A DNA stretch of 64,000 nt, from sequence record MT129652.1. One strand, written 5' to 3'. Each line of letters begins with the position of its first letter. Within the stretch, counting starts at the first letter, position 1. Origin of the DNA: Escherichia phage MN01. A program made the translations under genes and the position numbers. This document shows, in pieces, positions 27,450 through 38,411 of this stretch. The notes below the pieces were generated by a model that ran no database searches, had not been told where the DNA came from, and worked only from the letters and a program-made list of their open reading frames with translations.

Positions 27450-27725
27450 ATGACTAAATTTGAAATCGTTTCTGAAATTGTTACTGTAACTTCAATTTTG
27501 ATTAAAACCGACCGGGAAGATATTACGATGAAGCGTGATGTATTTATCGCGTTTTTGAATGAGTTGGGATTGAGAAATGAGAATGGGAATGAGTTAAACA
27601 ATGTATCGTTTAACAAGTTGTTTAAAAGTTTATCTGAAGATGAAATTGAACAAATTATTGAACAATTTAACGAAGGATTCGAAGATATACACCGTTATCT
27701 TATGATGTATACCTCCGGATTCTAA
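27450..27725 (+). CDS. asiA: AsiA anti-sigma-70 factor
   Basis: 91 aa; VTVTSILIK, FIAFLNELG and EQFNEGFEDIHRYLMMYT align with T4 AsiA as remembered. Confidence 0.85.
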   Translation: MTKFEIVSEIVTVTSILIKTDREDITMKRDVFIAFLNELGLRNENGNELNNVSFNKLFKSLSEDEIEQIIEQFNEGFEDIHRYLMMYTSGF

Positions 27726-28375
27726 CGTGTACGCCCAAGCGTACGACCTGCTTGTCCACACATAGCAGAAAGCCTATCAAAACCAAGGTTAGGTTTTTGC
27801 TTATACCAGTACAGTGAGACTGTGCCTGCATAAACGTTTTCCAAATTAAAGAACGGGCAGCTGAACATATATGCGAAGCTGCTTTTTTTCTTTGTTGGTA
27901 AGAATACAGATTCCGTACTGGATTCAAAATAATTACCATTAACCCCCGCCAAATATTCCGCCGAAGTTTTATCTATTGGAAACCCACCTAAATTTTTTTC
28001 GTCGACTGTATCAGGCAATATCCCCTCGTATCCCACCATATCCACAAAGTAGTTAAGGTTAGTTGGTCTAAAAGAATATATTGCTGTAAAGTCTGCCCCA
28101 CTTGACGAGTGGACTATCTGGATTTGCTCGATAGCTGCAATTTTAAATCTGTTATCCTGGTCTTGCCTTATCATTTCAGTGTATGAGGCATATGAAGCAT
28201 CCCTGTACGCATCTAAAAGTGCATCACCTTTATACCAGATTACCGCCATTAAAAATAATAGAACAATAACTAGTACCCGGGAAAAAACAACTTTCCCGGT
28301 CGCATTATCTTTAAAAATTCTATCAAGAAGTCCAAAAAGTAGGTCGGGTATTGATATTCCTACTTTTGGTTCCAT
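27722..28375 (-). CDS. t: holin T
   Basis: 217 aa (T4 218 aa); single N-terminal transmembrane segment with large C-terminal domain; late promoter upstream on the minus strand. Confidence 0.85.
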   Translation of the reverse strand: MEPKVGISIPDLLFGLLDRIFKDNATGKVVFSRVLVIVLLFLMAVIWYKGDALLDAYRDASYASYTEMIRQDQDNRFKIAAIEQIQIVHSSSGADFTAIYSFRPTNLNYFVDMVGYEGILPDTVDEKNLGGFPIDKTSAEYLAGVNGNYFESSTESVFLPTKKKSSFAYMFSCPFFNLENVYAGTVSLYWYKQKPNLGFDRLSAMCGQAGRTLGRTR

Positions 28376-28392: not shown

Positions 28393-28400
28393 ATATTTAT
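28393..28400 (-). promoter_or_regulatory. late promoter motif (TATAAATA on minus strand) for t
   Basis: TATTTATA on plus strand, 18 nt upstream of the t start codon. Confidence 0.55.
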
Positions 28401-28412
28401 AGCGCTTATGTA

Positions 28413-29195
28413 CTATAGCCAGGAGCCGTAGATAGTGCCTGTAGCGCCCCATGAAGGAGAACTTCCGAATACAGCTCGTCCAGCTCCGCCTTGTGAGCCG
28501 TATGTAACGCTTCGTCCGTAAGCACCGCCACCAGCCCCGCCCGCATCGCCACCATTACCACCACCCCACTGTCCGCCAAAGCTACCACCGCCACCTGGGC
28601 CTGTATAACTAGCGTTGCCACCTGGGTTTACGGCACCATTAGTACCACCTAATCCATATGGTCTACCGCCACCGCCACCGGCAGTACCAGCTTCAAGCCA
28701 AGAGTTATTTGAAGCGCATCCGGCACCACCGCCACCACCTGAAGCTATAACGCCATAGTTCCAGATACGGAGTCTGCCTCCAATGTCGTTTTGAATTACA
28801 TCACCGCCATTTGTACCTGCTATCCAAACACGGGTCCCACCATTACCACCGCGTCCCCACATATGAACCCCACCATGAATATTCAAAGTAACATATTCAT
28901 TAGGAGTATCACCGTACATAAAGAACAATGGAACATCTTTAGTATAAGATACTAAATCACCTGTGATATTAAACACAATAGGGGCAGCACCGGCTTCAAA
29001 ACAACGGTCTCTAAACCATTGCCCGTTAAAGTTATGGTCGGCTCCAAGCGTGTGAATTACTTCAACAGATCGACCTATCATATTACTCATCCAAAATGGA
29101 ACACCCATTCTTAATCTTACGGCTGCTCCTGCCATCCAAGGGTCTCCAGTTTGTACCCTTGCAGACCATCCTACCCACGGTCCTTCAACTGCCAT
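28413..29195 (-). CDS. 38: long-tail-fibre tip adhesin gp38 (T2 type, glycine-rich motifs)
   Basis: N-terminal domain close to T2 gp38 as remembered ([50 protein letters not shown]); C-terminal half has poly-Gly motifs separated by variable segments; start set at MAVEGPW with GGAGG SD. Confidence 0.85.
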
Positions 29196-29207
29196 ATAAA
29201 CCTCCAA

Positions 29208-29221
29208 GGGGCCGAAGCCCC
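29208..29221 (-). other. stem-loop (GGGGC-UUCG-GCCCC) in the 37-38 intergenic spacer
   Basis: Perfect 5-bp stem with UUCG tetraloop on the minus-strand transcript, just upstream of the gp38 SD. Confidence 0.5.
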
Positions 29222-29226
29222 TCTTA

Positions 29227-32200
29227 TTATTTTAACAATGATTTAACTAAAGATTTAAGTTCTTCAATCTCTGATTTCAATTCTGCTATTTCAGCAGTAT
29301 GCTCATTGATTGCAGCTGTATTTAAACCAATTACACCGTTATAGTTCAAACGAAGTAAAGCTTCACCATCAGGGTCACCTTCAACCAATTCAGGTAAAAT
29401 AGCTTGAACTTCTTGGGCAATTAAACCAGCATTAGGTTCCCATTTCTGATTACCTTCCTCATCTAGGCCTCGCTTCTGCATATAAGTGTAACCGTTAATT
29501 TTAGAAAGCTTCTGAGAAGCATTTTCAAATTTAACAAGGTCCTTTTTAACACGAATATCAGAGCGGACATAAACATCTCGAACATATGTAGAATAGGCAT
29601 CACTTTGTTGGACTAAATGACCGAAAGAAATAATAGCTCGTCCTGTTTCGGTCCACAAAGCACCGGTGGTATCCCAAAGACCTTCATGGATATGGTAAGA
29701 GCTAGACCATGAAGCAATATGAACACCATTGGCAACCATATTGATTCGGCCGTCACCACCATGAACTAATCCGGTATCATTATCACCAATAACAAGACAC
29801 GGGCCTGTCCATACAGGGTCACCACCACCAGCTGATAATCTTGCTCCAGTTTGAACCATGTTAGGAACATACAAAACTCCGTTATGATGGAATTCATATA
29901 TAGCTTGTGGGTCGGAACCGTTTTCCTGGTTACCTACACGAATAATACCTTGCGCCCAGTTATTAGTAATGCGTCGCATACCAAAATCAACACCTGATAT
30001 GAATCCTTCACCAGTAATACCTGATTTTCCTTTGATAATAGGATAATAACTATCATTACCAACATTACCAAAATCCACAAATACCGGTGCTTCTTGCTTC
30101 CATTGATTACCAAAACCACCACCTTGGTGAGCCGTCCAGACAGAGCCATTAATAAAAAGCCGGTCCCTATTAAAATTAAAAGTGGCTGAACCTTGTGGGT
30201 TTAAAGCAATATCACCACCTGCATTAATATTAACACCCGAATTAGTTTGAAAACTATAAAATGATATAGCATTATCAGCACCACCGTTACCTACATACCA
30301 GTTATCAATACCAGCTTTTTGTCCTTTCAAATAACCAGATTCGGTTGCAGCACTGTTAATAACAATAGCATCCGAGTTTACATTCAGAGTTAAACGGCCG
30401 GTCATTGTATCGCCGCCTTTACCAACACGAGTATTCACCGCCGCGTCAAGGTTAGTAGCACCGCTATACTTGTTCCAAATAGAACCTGCAATATTACCAT
30501 CAGTATTCATGAAAGCTGTACCGGCATATAAGCGGTTCTGAGCCATGAAGTTACCTTCTTTGGTAAAGCGCCAATATTTTAATCCTGTAGCATCACCATC
30601 ACCAAGCAAATCACCTTGAGCAACAATTCGGTATTCGCTCGTAGCTCGGTCCATACCTTGAGTAACGGTTATATTCGAATCGATATTTTTCTGCTTAGTA
30701 ATAGGATAAAATGCTTGAGTTGCAGCATCGAGCGTTTGATACACCAGAGCTTTAGTCGTGTTCTGGTTGGCATAAGATGCACCGTTACTATTAGGGAATT
30801 CCAATGCACCATTACCCCTAAAATAAACCTGGTCTGCTTCTAAGTTAGGGATTTTAACACGACCAGTGTCTAACATAATACTTAATGGGCGTAATGGGCC
30901 TAATCCGCCACTTTCGCCGGCATTAACATTGGTCGGGATAATATGCAGCTGGTCTTCCGAATTTCGAAAAATAACACCGTACTTGTCGTTCCAAATACGA
31001 AGTCCACTAGCAGCGCGAACTTTAATTTCATTGGAAACATACAGATTGCGTTTTAAGGATGTATCTTGATTGACAGTCAATCCTTCAATTACATTCATGG
31101 TACCATTTAAATAGGATTCGACTTTACCTGCTGTAGTTCGTTGAATATAATGCATCCAGCCGGTAGCATCAGATGTTTCCATTACGTTTTTACGGTCGCC
31201 ATCGACACTAGTAAAGGTATTACCCCAAACGCTGATAGTCATATTATCAACTGAACTACTTCCTGTTGTATTTCCTTTAAAAAGCACTGTCGAAGCAGTA
31301 CTGAGACCATCAATATTAACCGAACCACCACGGACTTCAACGTTACCAGGAGTAACCAACAACCCACCATCGGTGTTAACGTTTGTTACACCTTTGCCAC
31401 GAAAATAATGGTGATATTTGCCGCTTTGGTGATAACCTAAAAGAGTTTGACCGTCGCCGAAGCCGTTTTTATCATTAGTAGTATTAACAATAACTAATGG
31501 ATAGTTTTGAGTTGTAGGAAGAATTAAATCAGAACCGTTGGTTGAATAACCCGCAACTAACTGTTTAAGGCTTGTAACTTCAGTTGGAGTTGTAAGTAAA
31601 GTATAAGCTCCATTATTAACTGTATGGAACTGGCCATCTTGCTTCCATTTCAAACCTGTGTTATTGTCGCCAAGTGCGATAGCAGACGGACCTAATGTTG
31701 AGTATCCTGAGCTATCCCCAGGTAGGCCAACGGAAAGAGAATTTGATGTTTTGACATCGCCATCTGCATTAAATGACCAAAGATACTTAGCTGTTCCGGC
31801 TGTAGAAATAGAATGCCATGAAATACCATTTACATTATTAAGTTCACGATACCTAATTCCATCGACAGCGTGTCTACTTATTCTAAGATAGTTAATAGCT
31901 GTTGCGCTTGAACTTGCAGGATTATTATTTGCTAATGAAGATATATCATAATCAAGAGCTGATTTATTACCAGTATCAACGGTATTAGTATAAATTACTG
32001 GAGATTTCACCGATGTTCCGCTGGAAATAGACGGAGCATAAAATAAACCGTCACCGTTGAATGCAAAAATATTAGATGTTGAATTAGTATAATCCTGGAC
32101 ACGAACGTTCAAGATTTGCTTGGTAGTTCCTGGGCGTGATTGTGAATAAATTATGCCTCTTTCACGTGCATCAGCCAAATCCTGGAATCGAACGTGGGTG

Positions 32201-32553
32201 GTTCCTGTACCCCGTACAAGAACTTCACCGTTATCTGTCATTAGGCGAGATTTTGCTGTGATATCACCATTTGCTGTTACACTTCCGGATGTCGCATAAC
32301 TACCTGTTTGGGTAAAAGTACCATTCAGGGCATAATCACCGGTCTGATTGTAATTTCCTTTATGAATAACATTACCATCGATATTACCACCTTTAGCAAA
32401 GCCAAGGTCGATAATAGCTCCAGTGTCGTCTTTAGTAAAAAGTAAGCGGTCTTTCAGGTTGATAGCCAGTTCACCTTCAGCAAGAACTGTTGGCGCCGGA
32501 CGAACGCCGGCAACCTTACTTCTTTTAAATTGTATTTGTTTTAAAGTAGCCAT
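29227..32553 (-). CDS. 37: long tail fibre distal subunit gp37 with C-terminal intramolecular-chaperone-like domain
   Basis: 1108 aa; N-terminal 60 aa nearly identical to T4 gp37 as remembered; C-terminal about 110 aa ([15 protein letters not shown]...coiled coil) resembles tail-spike auto-processing chaperone domains. Confidence 0.9.
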
Positions 32554-32561
32554 AATGCCTC

Positions 32562-33209
32562 TTAATAATATCCAAAATCTTGTACGGAGTCTTTAAGAAC
32601 GATTTGGTCAAAACGAGGCACATGGGCCGGGTCTGATGCTGGGTTCCTAGAGAAGAAATTAGGTGCTGACAAGTTACCTGTCATTGTTTGCAATGTACTA
32701 TTATTTAGTTCCACTTGTTGTTGGTTGGTTACATTACCAAGACCGACTTGAGCTTTTGATGGAGTGTTCCCTGGAGAAAATACACGACCTGTTTCATCAT
32801 AAATGTGACGAGCTAACGTATCACCCATAACAGTAAGACGTTTTGCTCCTGTCGTAGTGTCAGGGTCAAAAATAACAAATGGTGTTCCTGTTTCAGTCTC
32901 AAATCCAAACGGTCCTTTAATACGGAAAGATGCTGTAAATGGTGCTCCACCTGTTCTCGCTCCCAACTTAATCCCGTAACCATTTGAATCGTTAAATGTC
33001 AGGCCTTGTTCGAAATACACATTTGCTTTATAATTACCACCCAGAGCTTTAGAAACAAAATCGTTATCGACTGCTTGTGGCTTGTTATATTCGGAATAAA
33101 TTTTATAAGTTTTGAAATATAAGTCATTGCTGACTGGTGTTAATGGGAAATTACCCTGGTGCCAGAGGACCGAACCTCCGGCTGTTGAGCCTAGTTTTAA
33201 ATCTGCCAT
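32562..33209 (-). CDS. 36: long tail fibre hinge subunit gp36
   Basis: 215 aa (T4 221 aa); between gp35 and gp37 as in T4. Confidence 0.8.
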   Translation of the reverse strand: MADLKLGSTAGGSVLWHQGNFPLTPVSNDLYFKTYKIYSEYNKPQAVDNDFVSKALGGNYKANVYFEQGLTFNDSNGYGIKLGARTGGAPFTASFRIKGPFGFETETGTPFVIFDPDTTTGAKRLTVMGDTLARHIYDETGRVFSPGNTPSKAQVGLGNVTNQQQVELNNSTLQTMTGNLSAPNFFSRNPASDPAHVPRFDQIVLKDSVQDFGYY

Positions 33210-33244: not shown

Positions 33245-33252
33245 TATTTATA
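33245..33252 (-). promoter_or_regulatory. late promoter motif for gene 36
   Basis: TATTTATA on plus strand, upstream of the gp36 start on the minus strand. Confidence 0.5.
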
Positions 33253-33258
33253 ACGAAA

Positions 33259-33280
33259 AAAGGACTCCGAAGAGTCCTAT
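33259..33280 (-). terminator. probable terminator after gene 35
   Basis: Hairpin AGGACTC-UUCG-GAGUCCU followed by a U-tract on the minus-strand transcript. Confidence 0.45.
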
Positions 33281-34407
33281 TGTTTTTCTCGTAGTTCGGC
33301 TGCGTATATCTTGCCGGCTCTCGGAGCTTGTGCATCTGGGAATGTTACAATTGTATTACCTGTATTTGTTGCATCGTTTGCATATGACATCCTTATGCCG
33401 TTGACACCAAATTCAGCTGGTTTGAATGCCGAGTCGCCTCTGGTTATCTCACCAATAACAATATTACGTATTGACCCTGTTCCAGTAGCTACAGTTCTTG
33501 ATGTTACTACCGTAAAGCCATCAGCTCCCGCTGGAATCTCGACATATCTTTCGAAACTCGCCCAAGCCCCGGCTGGAACGTTTGCTGCAATATCGATGTT
33601 TGTATTTGATATTGGAGCAGTGCTAGGGCTTTTAAAGAATCGAACCGAAGTCCTTACAGTTCCGGCGGCTTTCAGTTCTGCGTCAAATGACATCTGAAAC
33701 TTCAAGTAAAGCACATCCAAAGGTAAAAGGTTATAGGTATCCATAGGAGTCACCAGGTCCTCTGTGGGAAACCTTTTAATTGTGGTTGGTGTTCCATCAC
33801 CTGTTGATGAATACGTGCTCTCGTCTTCCGTTATGCGCACAGGATAGCCTGTTGCCCCTATATCACTAAAGGTATCATAAACGACTTCAAGCGGAGTCGA
33901 AACATCCTCAACTAACTTCCCGTCATTATACTTAACATGCTCCGAAACAATTACGTTCCTGCCGGTTATGTAAAAAGCCGAGTACGATGTATCAACTTTA
34001 TCAATCAACCATTTCTCTGGGAATGCTCTTGAACCACATTTACGGAACCAGTCAATTAATGTCTGTGATGCATTTAGTTTCCCAGAAGAAATAAAAGCAA
34101 TCAATCTTCCAGCTGGTACAGATTCCACAAAGGTGATTAATGCCTGACTGATTACATCGTGTGAGCTAGTTAATGAATAGTTTTTTGTGTTAACAATTTT
34201 ATTCGTAGTTGTATCAATTTCTAATAGAGTCAAACCATTACCAAAAGTAGTTGGTCCGATTCGTTCATCCTGGAATTTGATATACGATTTCACCGTGGAA
34301 AGAGTACAGCTCCCTGCTATACTCATTTTAAATTTAACGGCATTATTTTCTGATATAACTGGCGTTTGGACATATCCTTGTCCAAACTCTGCCATAAATT
34401 TTTCCAT
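33277..34407 (-). CDS. 35: long tail fibre hinge connector gp35
   Basis: 376 aa (T4 372 aa); syntenic between 34 and 36. Start may be the fifth codon (MAEFG). Confidence 0.75.
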   Translation of the reverse strand: MEKFMAEFGQGYVQTPVISENNAVKFKMSIAGSCTLSTVKSYIKFQDERIGPTTFGNGLTLLEIDTTTNKIVNTKNYSLTSSHDVISQALITFVESVPAGRLIAFISSGKLNASQTLIDWFRKCGSRAFPEKWLIDKVDTSYSAFYITGRNVIVSEHVKYNDGKLVEDVSTPLEVVYDTFSDIGATGYPVRITEDESTYSSTGDGTPTTIKRFPTEDLVTPMDTYNLLPLDVLYLKFQMSFDAELKAAGTVRTSVRFFKSPSTAPISNTNIDIAANVPAGAWASFERYVEIPAGADGFTVVTSRTVATGTGSIRNIVIGEITRGDSAFKPAEFGVNGIRMSYANDATNTGNTIVTFPDAQAPRAGKIYAAELREKQ

Positions 34408-34415
34408 ATTACCTC

Positions 34416-37400
34416 TTATTCAATCCATTCAAACTTAACGGATTTAGTGGTCGGGTCTGGGATGATACGTACGTTACCGATACGTAACCAATCGAGAATG
34501 GTTAAGTTCCCCATCGTTGTGTTGTCAGCCGGTAATGCACCAACATCCTCTGCAGACGGAGGGTTATCCGCGGTGTAAACCATTGCGAAAGTCGTCCATG
34601 CGGATTTATTTTTCTGCCATGTACGAGTATAACGAATAGTACCACCGTTCAATCCAGTTGGATAGCAAACCCAATCTTGATAACATGAATCCAGCGTATT
34701 ACCAAACTGAGTCAATGTACCAGGATATTTAATTTGTTTGTCACGAACTGAATAGTCAAACCATGTTCCGCGTAGTTTCTGTCCAGAGCTACCTAATACT
34801 TCATCACCAAGTGTACCATCATCATTACGATAACGAATAGCAGGCGAGGCGAAAGTTCCGTTTTCAGTTAACCAACCAGAAGCATTCCAAACTTCATCAG
34901 TTACCCCAGCAGGTTTAGTTTGAACCGTATCAATGTTTACTTGACGTTTTAACTTCATTGTCCAATAACCAGGGAACTGGCTATAAGTCGCTTCATCATT
35001 GATATCGACAGACCAGAAGCCAACAGTATCAGCAGTCGGAGCTTGTGCAATAAGACTCGGTTTCGTACCAAATACACGGACCGGAGCATTCACACGGAGT
35101 ACACCAGACATTGTATCACCAGCCTGGTTAACAAAGTTTCTATCAACAATTTCTACTGCGTTTTTCTCGGTCAGAACTTTAAATGCACCGCCACCATTTG
35201 CTATGATATTGCCAGCATCAAGAGTTTTGAGCACTAAATTCTGTGAGTTATCACCCAGAGACAAAGTTGCGCCAGAAGCTTCACCTGTTGTGGTTGCAAT
35301 AGTACGACCATTTAGAACGTAATTATTTTTGGCTTGAACATCGTTTCCGGCGCTGAGGTTGTTCAATACAGCAACATTACCCGAGGCGGTGTTTAATGTC
35401 AATACGTTAGTCGTATCGCCGATAGTCATTGTCGTTCCAGTGGAAGGAGCAGTGATTTTCCACTTGTTAGTTCCGTTAACAACATTCACAGTCCCGAACG
35501 TCGAAGTGCCAGCCGTTACATCAGTAAACACTGCAGTGCTCGTCGATACAACCGGAGCAGAGATATTTGTCTGTTTAGTGAGAGTTAATGCACCTTCAAC
35601 AGTCTGGGCAATATCACGACGAATAAATTGGGTCGAATCGAGACTATCAAGTTTTTCAGCATTAACAGCCATCGCATTTATCGGTAAGAAGTTTTGCAAT
35701 ACGCGGTTTAATTCGTAAGGCGAAACTGCATATCCAGATTTTGCATAGCTAACCAGTTTACTTGGGTCCGGAGTATACACACCATTTGCATATGTAAATC
35801 CTGCACCTGTCGTTGTAGTTGCGGCCGAAGTAGCTGCACCAGAAGATAAACGAACAAATCCTCGCAGTGTTTCAGATGATTCCCAGGTGGTTTCCGTTTG
35901 TGCAATATATTTCAGCGCAGACGGACTAATGGCCAAGACTTTTGATGTACCAGCGGTTGCTTCGGCGTTTGTCGCAATGCGAACAATACCTTCGGCATTT
36001 TCAGTAGCTTTTTTCGACATCAATTTAAGCGGGGTAACGATTGTTTTATCGTCAGTGCCGGTATTGACTTCGCCCTGAGTTGCTAATCTTGCTGTACCAC
36101 GTTGAGTCTCATTTGCTTCAAGAATATTCAGGCTATAATGGTCCCAGAGCGTCCCTGTTTCTACTAAACCACTTAATGCATTAACAGAAGTACGAGCAGT
36201 ATTATTAAATCTATTTTTAATTTTTAATGGAGTTGAGATACGAGTATCATCAGTTCCAGTATCAAATTCTGATTGCGTAGCAATCTCGGCTATGCCGGAT
36301 AATGTTTCTGATGCTTTACGGTCATTTAACGTTTTAGGAGTTACAGCTCTGGTATAATCAGTTCCTGCATTTGTTTCCGCCTGAGTAGCAATCTCGATTA
36401 AACCAATACGGGAATCAAGAGCAGTTTTGCGATGCAACATTTCTGGAGTAACGACTGCGTTTGCCCAGTCAGATTGAGAAGTACCGGCGATTACTTCACT
36501 TTCAACCGCAAGAATAACCGCGCCTTGCTGAGTGTAAGTAGCTTTGTACTGGTCAAGAGCTTTCGGAGAAACAACCAGATTAACCGTATTTTTATTATAA
36601 ACGTTTGTACCATTTAATTCACGCGAAGCAGCAGGAGTTGCACCAGTCGTTGAAACGTAAGTTACAATGCCGGATAGCGATTCTGAACCCTGACGAGCTT
36701 GCAGTTTCTTTGGAGTTATAATTGTGGTATCATCTACACCTGCATCAGTTTCTTGCTGTGTGGCGAGTTCTGCGAGCCCACGTCTCGTTTCTGTTGCCGT
36801 ACGTTCATTGAGTTTTTTCGGAGAAATAATTACATCATCAACAAATGCAAAATCACTGTTCTGATTTACTTGGGCAGTCGTTGCGATTCTGGCAATGCCT
36901 CGTTGGTTCTCTTTAGCAACACGGTTGGCTAAAGTCTGAGGGGTAATTGCGAGTTCTTTCTCTGGGTTATTTTCATGGTCAACGTTTGCCTGAGTCTGGT
37001 TTGCCAGAGCAATAACACCAAGACGTGCACGCGTGGAATCATTTAATGAGTCAACTCGTTCGACAGTCGGAACGTTCTGAGCGACAACCCAATAACTTTT
37101 TCCAGATACTTTATCTTCTGCATATGACAATTCAATAACCGGAGTATAACTGATATTACCGTTAAAGGTCAATGAATCAACCAACACCCAAGTTGTATCC
37201 GGTGGATACTCGGAACGTTTAGGGAATTGCAGTAATTTAATGTCAGATGCAATCTTATCGCCAACAGCAGCTCTTATATTAACAGTCTGTGATTTACGGA
37301 GATAGTTCAGTGCAATCTTAACGATGTCACCTTGTAAAACATCAGTTGGTAAATCGATATTAATCGTTGCCGGAGTTGAGTTATCTTCGCCAAATACAAT

Positions 37401-38372
37401 GATGCTTTCGTTTGGTAAAAGTTTAACACTATCGCGAATAATACGCAGACGAGTTTTATTATCACCGTCCCAGACATGCCAGAGTTTTTCTGCAGCATTA
37501 TAAACGAAGAAACCATCACCTGTGGTACGGAATTCCATTTGATGCTGACCAGCTTTACCAAGACTGGAACTGGTGTCAAAGGTTTCAACCATCAGGTGGA
37601 ACGTTGGCCCCATGCCATCGATATCAACAGATTTGACAATATCACCCTGGTTTGCATACTTAGGAAGAATGAAAGTAATCGGTGCACCAGTTGTATAACG
37701 ACGCATAATAAAGTCGCCAGCTTGTGCATGGAAACGTCCGGTCGACGGTTCTATTCTGATACCACGTTCTTCGTTACCTGCTTCCCAAAATTGCCATAAG
37801 CGGTTTGAAAAGATAAGCATGTTATAAGAGAACGGTTTGGTAATTAAAACTTCTGAATACTGATTACCAAAGCGAACAATCTTTTGGTTACCTGCCCCTG
37901 GTACGTTGCTTGACTGGATTTTAATTTCATTATAACCAACGTTCCCACCAATATCTTTAATAACGATGGTATCGCCGTCAACCGGGTTTGCAGGCAATGT
38001 AAATGTGGTAAAGCTTGCAGCTGAGTCGACTGCGATAAATTCCCCCGAGTTAAGCTGACGGGTTGGAGATGCAACAGTTTCCCATTTAGGGTCAGTACGA
38101 GTTGCCAACCAATACTGAGGCGTAAATGCTCCAGCAGGGGCCGGAATATCACGTTGAGCAACCCAAATACGGTTATCATTAATAACTGCAAAGTTCTTTT
38201 TGTATCCGCGTGTTGCATCATATTGTTGAACTGTGTTTTCTTCTATAAAGAAACCTACGTTAACGCCGTCTGATAAAACTGAGTAATCAGCTTTTGCGAC
38301 ATTAATGACTTTCTCACCAGCAGCATCGAGACCGGATGTTGCTCTGAATGCTGGTTTTAAAATATCGGCCAT
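34416..38372 (-). CDS. 34: long tail fibre proximal subunit gp34
   Basis: 1318 aa (T4 1289 aa); long stretches near-identical to T4 gp34 as remembered (e.g. NTVQQYD.TRGY, LLQFPKRSEYPP, PTVERVDSLNDSTRARLGVIALA, NLTI.DWLRIGNVRI.PDP..K.VKFEW.E). Confidence 0.9.
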   Translation of the reverse strand: MADILKPAFRATSGLDAAGEKVINVAKADYSVLSDGVNVGFFIEENTVQQYDATRGYKKNFAVINDNRIWVAQRDIPAPAGAFTPQYWLATRTDPKWETVASPTRQLNSGEFIAVDSAASFTTFTLPANPVDGDTIVIKDIGGNVGYNEIKIQSSNVPGAGNQKIVRFGNQYSEVLITKPFSYNMLIFSNRLWQFWEAGNEERGIRIEPSTGRFHAQAGDFIMRRYTTGAPITFILPKYANQGDIVKSVDIDGMGPTFHLMVETFDTSSSLGKAGQHQMEFRTTGDGFFVYNAAEKLWHVWDGDNKTRLRIIRDSVKLLPNESIIVFGEDNSTPATINIDLPTDVLQGDIVKIALNYLRKSQTVNIRAAVGDKIASDIKLLQFPKRSEYPPDTTWVLVDSLTFNGNISYTPVIELSYAEDKVSGKSYWVVAQNVPTVERVDSLNDSTRARLGVIALANQTQANVDHENNPEKELAITPQTLANRVAKENQRGIARIATTAQVNQNSDFAFVDDVIISPKKLNERTATETRRGLAELATQQETDAGVDDTTIITPKKLQARQGSESLSGIVTYVSTTGATPAASRELNGTNVYNKNTVNLVVSPKALDQYKATYTQQGAVILAVESEVIAGTSQSDWANAVVTPEMLHRKTALDSRIGLIEIATQAETNAGTDYTRAVTPKTLNDRKASETLSGIAEIATQSEFDTGTDDTRISTPLKIKNRFNNTARTSVNALSGLVETGTLWDHYSLNILEANETQRGTARLATQGEVNTGTDDKTIVTPLKLMSKKATENAEGIVRIATNAEATAGTSKVLAISPSALKYIAQTETTWESSETLRGFVRLSSGAATSAATTTTGAGFTYANGVYTPDPSKLVSYAKSGYAVSPYELNRVLQNFLPINAMAVNAEKLDSLDSTQFIRRDIAQTVEGALTLTKQTNISAPVVSTSTAVFTDVTAGTSTFGTVNVVNGTNKWKITAPSTGTTMTIGDTTNVLTLNTASGNVAVLNNLSAGNDVQAKNNYVLNGRTIATTTGEASGATLSLGDNSQNLVLKTLDAGNIIANGGGAFKVLTEKNAVEIVDRNFVNQAGDTMSGVLRVNAPVRVFGTKPSLIAQAPTADTVGFWSVDINDEATYSQFPGYWTMKLKRQVNIDTVQTKPAGVTDEVWNASGWLTENGTFASPAIRYRNDDGTLGDEVLGSSGQKLRGTWFDYSVRDKQIKYPGTLTQFGNTLDSCYQDWVCYPTGLNGGTIRYTRTWQKNKSAWTTFAMVYTADNPPSAEDVGALPADNTTMGNLTILDWLRIGNVRIIPDPTTKSVKFEWIE

Positions 38373-38403: not shown

Positions 38404-38411
38404 TATTTATA
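38404..38411 (-). promoter_or_regulatory. late promoter motif for gene 34
   Basis: TATTTATA on plus strand about 30 nt upstream of the gp34 start on the minus strand. Confidence 0.55.

Follow-up and report, generated by a model that had tools for sequence, protein, structure and literature searches.

The tips of T-even bacteriophage long tail fibers are described for several phages. In T2 and T6, the distal fiber protein gp37 is cleaved at its C terminus and is then capped by gp38, and the gp37 tip and the attachment domain of gp38 pair in a lock-and-key manner (Trojet 2011). The gp37 of S16 is cited as carrying an autoproteolytic intramolecular chaperone, and Trp7, Trp20, and Trp36 of S16 gp38 insert into pockets of gp37. 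Here we describe genes 37 and 38 of Escherichia phage MN01, which were analyzed within a 64-kb stretch of its genome (MT129652.1; hereafter, the window). We conclude that the region is very probably the distal long-tail-fiber tip module of a T-even phage from the JS98 group (Dhakavirus), that it follows the plan of T2, T6, and S16 and not that of T4, and that the fiber tip is this textbook plan in a new recombinant combination of alleles. We met no evidence contradicting this architecture in the sequence, profile, and modeled-fold comparisons. Identities given below for segments of gp37 and gp38 are from protein comparisons with the named phages, and the coordinates of all features are collected in Table 1.

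A first-pass annotation, made from the letters of the sequence alone, had proposed that gp37 of MN01 ends in an autocleaving chaperone-like domain. In a check set in advance, we compared the gp37 C terminus with the peptidase S74 profile and with the residues required for autoproteolysis. The Peptidase_S74 profile (PF13884) matched amino acids (aa) 998–1057, at the extreme C terminus of the protein, over profile positions 1–57 of 58, with an E value (E) of 2e-12 and a score of 47.6 bits, above the gathering cut-off of 22. The protein motif that the first-pass annotation had quoted is present near the C terminus and is followed by a tail of 22 residues that looks heptad-like and is conserved with S16. 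Over the whole chaperone domain, identity is 56% to the S16 intramolecular chaperone and 97–98% to the corresponding domains of IME281, RB51, and vB_YenM_P8. The S74 domain is also found in gp37 of T2 (aa 1243–1300 of 1341), T6 (aa 881–939), JS98 (aa 976–1032), and S16 but not in that of T4, which has Collar and Phage_fiber domains instead; the contrast drawn with T4 in the first-pass annotation thus stands, as does its statement that T2 gp37 is processed at the C terminus, which is stated by Trojet 2011 for a protein that does bear the S74 domain.

Both members of the predicted Ser/Lys dyad, Ser998 (scissile and catalytic) and Lys1003 (general base), as well as the Arg between them, are intact in MN01 gp37. 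In a phmmer alignment to the ICA domain of MyRF (7DC3), Ser998 and Lys1003 fall on MyRF Ser587 and Lys592, the former being Ala in the crystallized mutant; the authors of the MyRF structure equated these residues with Ser911 and Lys916 of endoNF and showed that neither is dispensable. The i/i+5 spacing of the pair is that of endoNF (S911/K916), T5 pb1 (S1264/K1269), and MyRF (S587/K592), and the dyad motif is kept in gp37 of T2, JS98, IME281, RB51, vB_YenM_P8, and S16. Cleavage is predicted between Arg997 and Ser998, releasing a 111-aa fragment after trimerization. We note that the T6 record of 1998 (AF052605) reads SDSRLN at about aa 881–886 of gp37, with Asn in the place of the catalytic Lys that every other gp37 compared has and an X close by, and that the T6-like phage IME340 reads SDRRLK and so has the Lys, unlike AF052605. 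The Asn is either an error of the old sequence or a natural variant of the dyad. A second oddity is a 303-aa protein labeled E. coli (P0088), in which PF13884 is fused ahead of the two gp38 profiles (PF21721 and PF05268), so that gp37 reads through at its end into gp38; this is probably a gene-calling or assembly artifact on a 25.7-kb contig.

The C terminus of gp37 could also be read as a degenerate S74-like relic that stays on the fiber uncleaved, or gp38 could dock elsewhere. We regard this as very unlikely: in addition to the intact dyad and Arg and a score well above the Pfam cut-off, the domain shares its 56% identity with an S16 domain described as autoproteolytic, and in 6F45 the cleaved end is where a gp38 of this attachment subtype docks. 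Two points lend the alternative what strength it has: cleavage in MN01 is a prediction, and the Asn in AF052605 suggests that the site may vary. Our own interpretation has further limits. Capping and receptor binding, like cleavage, are carried over from homologues, and the comparison of catalytic residues covered the Ser/Lys dyad, while “folding sensor” residues, an Arg and an Asp lying upstream, are also described for T5 pb1 and endoNF. Further, the predicted local distance difference test score (pLDDT) of the AlphaFold model of gp38 is below 50 at aa 1–15 and 30–42, which lie in the attachment domain, so that the fold there is of low confidence. Such values are what one expects of a domain folding against gp37.

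The second component of the tip, gp38, had been taken in the first-pass annotation for an adhesin of the T2 kind and not a chaperone of the T4 kind, and profile, structure, and fold comparisons all bear this out. PF05268 matches aa 45–260 over its full length (profile positions 1–218 of 218; E 6.7e-80; 268.4 bits against a cut-off of 25), and the protein falls in PHROG 2056, “tail fiber protein; host specificity” (E 4e-103). It matches the receptor-binding domain of PP01 gp38 (PDB 9V85; E 4e-75) and, end to end, S16 gp38 (6F45_D; E 5e-48). From an alignment of 52 sequences, AlphaFold2 gave a model that has a mean pLDDT of 83.5, with most of aa 50–260 at 86–96 and aa 161–170 at 65, and superposes on 9V85 with a template modeling (TM) score of 0.92 and a root mean square deviation of 1.5 Å; the significant PDB matches to the model are the gp38 structures 9V85 and 6F45 only. 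The reading that gp38 is an assembly chaperone of the T4 type outside the virion, with the receptor-binding site in gp37 itself, can draw on the legacy T4 name “distal long tail fiber assembly catalyst” that several GenBank records of close relatives still give the gene, but we rejected it at the sequence level (BLASTP, Pfam, and tblastn) and give it practically no credence, as gp38 is not similar to T4 gp38 (BLASTP gave nothing below E 1.3, over 9 residues), no significant tblastn match to T4 gp38 was found anywhere in the window (best E 0.46), the receptor-binding tip of T4 gp37 (aa 785–1026) has no tblastn match in the window at E ≤ 10, gp38 matches adhesin profiles over its full length and two adhesin crystal structures, and gp37 ends in a removable S74 domain.

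The conserved gp37-binding domain that had been placed at the N terminus of gp38 is readily identified. PF21721 covers aa 1–40 completely (profile positions 1–40 of 40; E 3.2e-19; 69.1 bits against a cut-off of 25), and Trp7, Trp20, and Trp35 align with Trp7, Trp20, and Trp36 of S16. On the gp37 side, aa 919–1108 have a homologue in the fragment of S16 gp37 from the crystal structure with gp38 (E 2e-43). The predicted docking tip of gp37 (aa 918–997) is 90% identical to that of IME281, 86% to RB51, 34% to JS98, and 8–21% to T6 and T2; the attachment domain of gp38 is 100% identical to that of IME281, 48% to JS98, and 43% to T2. The two identities vary together across phages, and this tracking of the gp38 attachment subtype by the gp37 tip is lock-and-key pairing of the kind described in Trojet 2011. 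Judged by these sequences, the joint between gp37 and gp38 belongs to the IME281/RB51/S16 subtype and differs from that of T2 itself. The designation “T2-type” in the first-pass annotation therefore holds for the architecture of the tip and fails for its sequence, as identity to T2 is 43% in the attachment domain and 40% in the β-helix part, far below that to the IME281/RB51/S16 subtype.

Beyond the attachment domain, gp38 consists of a conserved and a variable part. The linker and the N-terminal part of the central β-helix (aa 41–118) are 97–99% identical in JS98, IME281, RB51, and vB_YenM_P8, 87–91% in T6, IME340, and PP01, and 40% in T2. The specificity domain that follows fits the glycine-rich C-terminal half noted in the first-pass annotation: Gly makes up 38% of aa 119–243 versus 14% of aa 1–118, with G3–G5 runs at aa 153–157, 173–177, 201–204, 211–213, and 222–224, and in the alignment its glycine-rich motifs occupy the same columns as those of S16, PP01, T2, and T6. 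The variable segments had been placed at about aa 125–255. A variable region does exist, but, since aa 244–260 are conserved, its limits are about aa 119–243, and the earlier boundaries were off by approximately 6–12 residues. Five receptor loops were predicted in this region by alignment to loops A–E of PP01 (Table 1); within loop D, Gln209 aligns with Gln206 of RB51, the residue that switches between OmpF and OmpW.

Taken together, we propose the following sequence of events. Gene 37 would be translated into a 1108-aa precursor, and its S74 chaperone (aa 998–1108) would nucleate trimerization of the β-helical shaft from the C-terminal end. After correct folding of the trimer, the chaperone would cut itself off at Arg997/Ser998 by means of the Ser998/Lys1003 dyad, and the newly exposed tip of the trimer (gp37 aa ∼918–997) would receive a single gp38 as its cap. 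A helical bundle at the N terminus of gp38 (aa 1–40), with Trp7, Trp20, and Trp35, would plug into three equivalent pockets of gp37; the rest of gp38 would form a β-helix with a polyglycine-II sandwich (aa ∼119–243), and its five distal loops would set the host range through contact with a host outer-membrane protein. The 3:1 stoichiometry of gp37 to gp38 and the loop-mediated binding are what the homologues lead us to expect.

The two halves of gp38 have different closest relatives. Residues 1–118 are closest to IME281 (99–100%), and aa 119–243 are closest to JS98, vB_YenM_P8, and cluster P0001 (98–99%) versus 66% to IME281; the closest full-length gp38 is that of vB_YenM_P8 (97.7%). In a sliding-window DNA comparison over 4.1 kb, the best match alternates among vB_YenM_P8, IME281, and JS98, and for most of the region DNA identity stays at or below 93% with every record in the phage collection (50,697 records). 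Such alternation is typical of this locus (Trojet 2011). On these comparisons, we describe the tip module as a recombinational patchwork, with an attachment half matching IME281 and a specificity half matching JS98/vB_YenM_P8. The whole specificity half was matched in the collection (tblastn) by six phages only (eight records), namely EAWsc9, vB_YenM_P8, TH44, TH40, and JS98 at 98–99% and PhAPEC2 at 90%, and a largely intact JS98-type specificity domain occurs in seven phage genomes, one of them frameshifted in its record, and in one metagenomic cluster. We also note that gp38 of vB_EcoM_RZ (P0002) has the same specificity type and runs into unrelated sequence after about aa 211 and that gp38 of Bp7 (P0017) follows its relatives up to about aa 224 and then does likewise. 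Both ends look like record frameshifts, due either to sequencing errors or to real truncation.

We next consider the receptor. The first-pass annotation had expected that alignment of gp38 with characterized adhesins would predict it. Over aa 119–243, identity is 63–66% to the OmpF type (IME281 and RB51), 43–45% to the Tsx type (T6 and IME339), 46–47% to the FadL type (T2 and IME341), 43–49% to the OmpC type (PP01 and S16), and 44–49% to the OmpA type (IME340 and AV119; the OmpA-type adhesins of FL08 and M1 were outside the best 45 matches listed). At non-Gly positions, the OmpF type retains 53–55% identity versus 27–38% for the Tsx, OmpA, FadL, and OmpC types. The alignment gave no confident assignment, because even the nearest type, OmpF, is too divergent in every loop for the receptor to be assigned by similarity. 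Further, full texts on JS98, PhAPEC2, TH40, TH44, EAWsc9, vB_EcoM_RZ, vB_YenM_P8, and Dhakavirus and the supplementary tables of a 255-phage receptor screen held no experimental receptor for any carrier of this specificity domain, which makes the JS98-type adhesin a specificity class without an experimentally assigned receptor in the literature searched. Our best guess is a porin-class β-barrel protein.

The receptor could well be a known target of gp38 other than OmpF (OmpC, OmpA, Tsx, FadL, OmpW, or LamB), a reading that we find plausible without calling it probable. An 11-aa segment is common to MN01 gp38 and the PSD2001-type adhesins, in which hypervariable segments (HVS) 1 and 2 resemble those of OmpC-binding PP01, and Dhakaviruses with OmpA (LHE83), FadL (IME341), and OmpF (IME281) specificity exist; however, the specificity region is only 43–49% identical to the OmpA, OmpC, Tsx, and FadL types. 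LHE83 itself was considered as a guide to the receptor and set aside, as it is not among the eight records with a match to the whole C-terminal half.

OmpF, recognized by IME281, RB51, and FL31/FL33, is the single most likely candidate, but we name it only tentatively. In its favor, the OmpF-type adhesins are the closest characterized ones, Gln209 aligns with the RB51 Gln206 that is needed for recognition of OmpF rather than OmpW, and vB_YenM_P8, in which the domain is 99% identical, infects Yersinia enterocolitica, with OmpF raised as a possibility by its authors. The guess is weakened by the hypervariable segments, every one of which differs from the OmpF type, as do all five loops in sequence, and by the ease with which specificity changes: a single Q206L substitution switches an RB51-type gp38 from OmpF to OmpW, and Bp7, with HVS1–3 resembling the OmpF type, reportedly uses LamB and OmpC. 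Least favored, and in our judgment unlikely, is an outer-membrane protein outside the repertoire of Tsx, OmpA, OmpF, OmpC, FadL, OmpW, and LamB. The JS98-type domain is rare in the collection and is common to phages plating on E. coli K-12 and on Y. enterocolitica, and for these reasons it may recognize such an unlisted receptor. If so, T-even adhesins would have a further, new class of receptor, and the domain would be a specificity cassette that is ready for use, having already been recombined onto two different attachment domains.

Away from the tip, gp37 is a full-length match to PHROG 1699, “long tail fiber protein distal subunit” (E 0), with overall identities of 89% to IME281, 84% to vB_YenM_P8, and 58% to JS98. 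Its N terminus is T4-like, as the first-pass annotation had it: the first 60 residues match T4 gp37 closely (Table 1), and aa 1–690 align with T4 gp37 aa 1–790 at 33% identity (E 1e-93). By analogy with T4, the N-terminal 60 residues would form the gp36-proximal joint.

The gene order 34-35-36-37-38-t-asiA in the window is that of JS98 and T4, and the order of the long-tail-fiber locus is also common to T2, IME281, and RB51; this is a canonical T-even long-tail-fiber locus. Gene 38 lies directly downstream of gene 37 and upstream of the holin gene t, as in JS98, T2, IME281, and RB51. Over its first 25 kb, the window is 94–96% identical to several JS98-group genomes, including EAWsc9, pEC-M719-6WT.2, and vB_YenM_P8, and identical to none. 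The T4-type late-promoter consensus TATAAATA has nine matches in the window versus 4.6 expected, three of which lie a short way upstream of gene 34, gene 36, and t, mirroring the late transcription units of T4. Given this placement, genes 36-37-38 probably form one late transcript, of which the copy ahead of gene 36 is the likely promoter. Two observations concern neighboring genes. The 3′ ends of asiA and t overlap by 4 bases in convergent orientation, and JS98 is arranged alike. Residues 57–128 of gp35 match PF15711 (“ILEI, interleukin-like EMT inducer”; FAM3/PANDER-like fold) at E 1.2e-6 and 29.4 bits, barely above the gathering cut-off of 27; for a tail-fiber hinge, such an assignment is unexpected.

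The reading frames of gp37 and gp38 were both found at the places given in the first-pass annotation, on the minus strand. The true start of gp38 is the ATG at 29195 (MAVEGPW…), which is preceded by GGAGG 5 bases upstream and opens a protein of 260 aa; the TTG at 29207 given by the open reading frame lister was rejected in its favor. Gene 37 ends in a double stop codon, and the spacer from there to the gene 38 ribosome-binding site holds a perfect hairpin, which does not look like a terminator because it has no T-run. It is possibly an RNA-stability or translational-coupling element. Its folding energy of −14.1 kcal/mol corresponds to a z-score of −1.3, that is, it is not significantly more stable than shuffled sequences, and for that reason we make no functional claim for it.

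Table 1. Features of the long-tail-fiber locus of MN01 and its surroundings; positions are those of the window.
Feature	Position	Strand	Detail
asiA	27450–27725	+	convergent with minus-strand fiber genes
Holin gene t	27722–28375	−	217 aa
Late-promoter consensus TATAAATA	28394–28401	−	T4 type; just upstream of t
Gene 38, tail-fiber tip adhesin	28413–29195	−	260 aa + stop codon (28413–28415)
gp38 aa 244–260 (last 17), conserved C-terminal strands closing the β-helix	28416–28466	−	100% identical to JS98, IME281, vB_YenM_P8
gp38 aa 119–243, specificity domain: polyglycine-II sandwich motifs interleaved with hypervariable segments	28467–28841	−	38% Gly
Predicted receptor loop E, aa 226–232 (YGRSVTY)	28500–28520	−	aligned from PP01 loop E
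Predicted receptor loop D, aa 206–210 (FGGQW)	28566–28580	−	aligned from PP01 loop D
Predicted receptor loop C, aa 185–190 (TNGAVN)	28626–28643	−	aligned from PP01 loop C
Predicted receptor loop B, aa 162–171	28683–28712	−	aligned from PP01 loop B
Predicted receptor loop A, aa 120–125 (GTRVWI)	28821–28838	−	aligned from PP01 loop A (W119–I124)
gp38 aa 41–118, linker and N-terminal part of central β-helix, conserved	28842–29075	−	identity
gp38 aa 1–40, gp37-attachment domain with Trp7, Trp20, Trp35	29076–29195	−	Gp38_N PF21721
GGAGG ribosome-binding site of gp38	29201–29205	−	5 nt upstream of ATG
GGGGC-UUCG-GCCCC tetraloop hairpin in the 31-nt gp37–gp38 spacer	29208–29221	−	sequence and fold
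Gene 37, distal long-tail-fiber subunit precursor	29227–32553	−	1108 aa + stop codon
gp37 aa 998–1108, intramolecular chaperone domain (Peptidase_S74 core aa 998–1057, then heptad-like tail)	29230–29562	−	Pfam PF13884
SDIRVK, predicted Ser998 and Lys1003 of S74 dyad	29545–29562	−	aa 998–1003
gp37 aa 918–997, last stretch of mature fiber, predicted gp38 docking tip	29563–29802	−	aligns to 6F45_A (S16 gp37 tip)
gp37 N-terminal 60 aa, T4-like conserved end	32374–32553	−	50/60 residues identical to T4 gp37, ungapped
Gene 36	32562–33209	−	215 aa
Late-promoter consensus TATAAATA	33245–33252	−	T4 type; upstream of gene 36
Gene 35 (hinge protein gp35)	33277–34407	−	376 aa
Gene 34	34416–38372	−	1318 aa
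Late-promoter consensus TATAAATA	38404–38411	−	T4 type; just upstream of gene 34

The analysis implies that the host range of MN01 would be set by the specificity domain of gp38 and not by gp37. The attachment and specificity halves of gp38 are separable cassettes that have already been recombined in nature, one specificity domain occurring with both IME281-type and T6-type attachment domains. As a name for gene 38, “distal long tail fiber assembly catalyst” is wrong. The practical value is modest and lies with annotators and phage engineers. The biology of the fiber tip is ordinary and well understood.

Among known systems are the peptidase S74 chaperones of K1F endosialidase, T5 pb1, and MyRF, with which the MN01 chaperone shares its C-terminal position after a trimeric β-helix, the Ser-x4-Lys dyad, and a conserved G(L/V)IAQE motif; similarity is distant (phmmer E 0.03 to MyRF), and the end left by cleavage serves in their case as the functional tip, whereas in MN01 it would become the docking site for a separate adhesin. 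T4, the tip of which is a gp37 needle (His/iron) with gp38 as chaperone, shares the gene order and the N-terminal two thirds of gp37 (83% identity over the first 60 aa) but differs in the Collar and Phage_fiber domains at the end of gp37, both of which are absent from MN01. T2 shares the S74 domain of gp37, a protein that in T2 is known to be processed, and a gp38 adhesin with glycine-rich motifs and hypervariable segments; however, its specificity region is 46%, its gp37 tip 20%, and its chaperone domain 29% identical to those of MN01, its gp37 is 233 aa longer, and it binds FadL and OmpF. S16 (PDB 6F45; Dunne et al. 2018) has the same architecture, chaperone motif (SD(R/I)R(I/V)K), three attachment Trp residues, and attachment subtype (MAV.GPWVG…) but is only 43% identical in the specificity region and 43% in the β-helix part; its loops B and E are shorter, and its receptor is Salmonella OmpC. 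IME281, a Dhakavirus with OmpF as its receptor, is close to MN01 throughout gp37 (97% in the chaperone) and in the first 118 residues of gp38; all hypervariable segments differ in the remainder, and its OmpF specificity is therefore not transferable to MN01. Finally, JS98, vB_YenM_P8, TH40, TH44, and EAWsc9, which belong to the same genus-level group as MN01, and cluster P0001 share its specificity domain at 98–99% identity. JS98 and P0001 differ in carrying it on a T6-like attachment domain (48% over aa 1–40) with a matching, different gp37 tip (34%), whereas in MN01 the JS98-type specificity domain goes with an attachment domain and a tip of the IME281 type.

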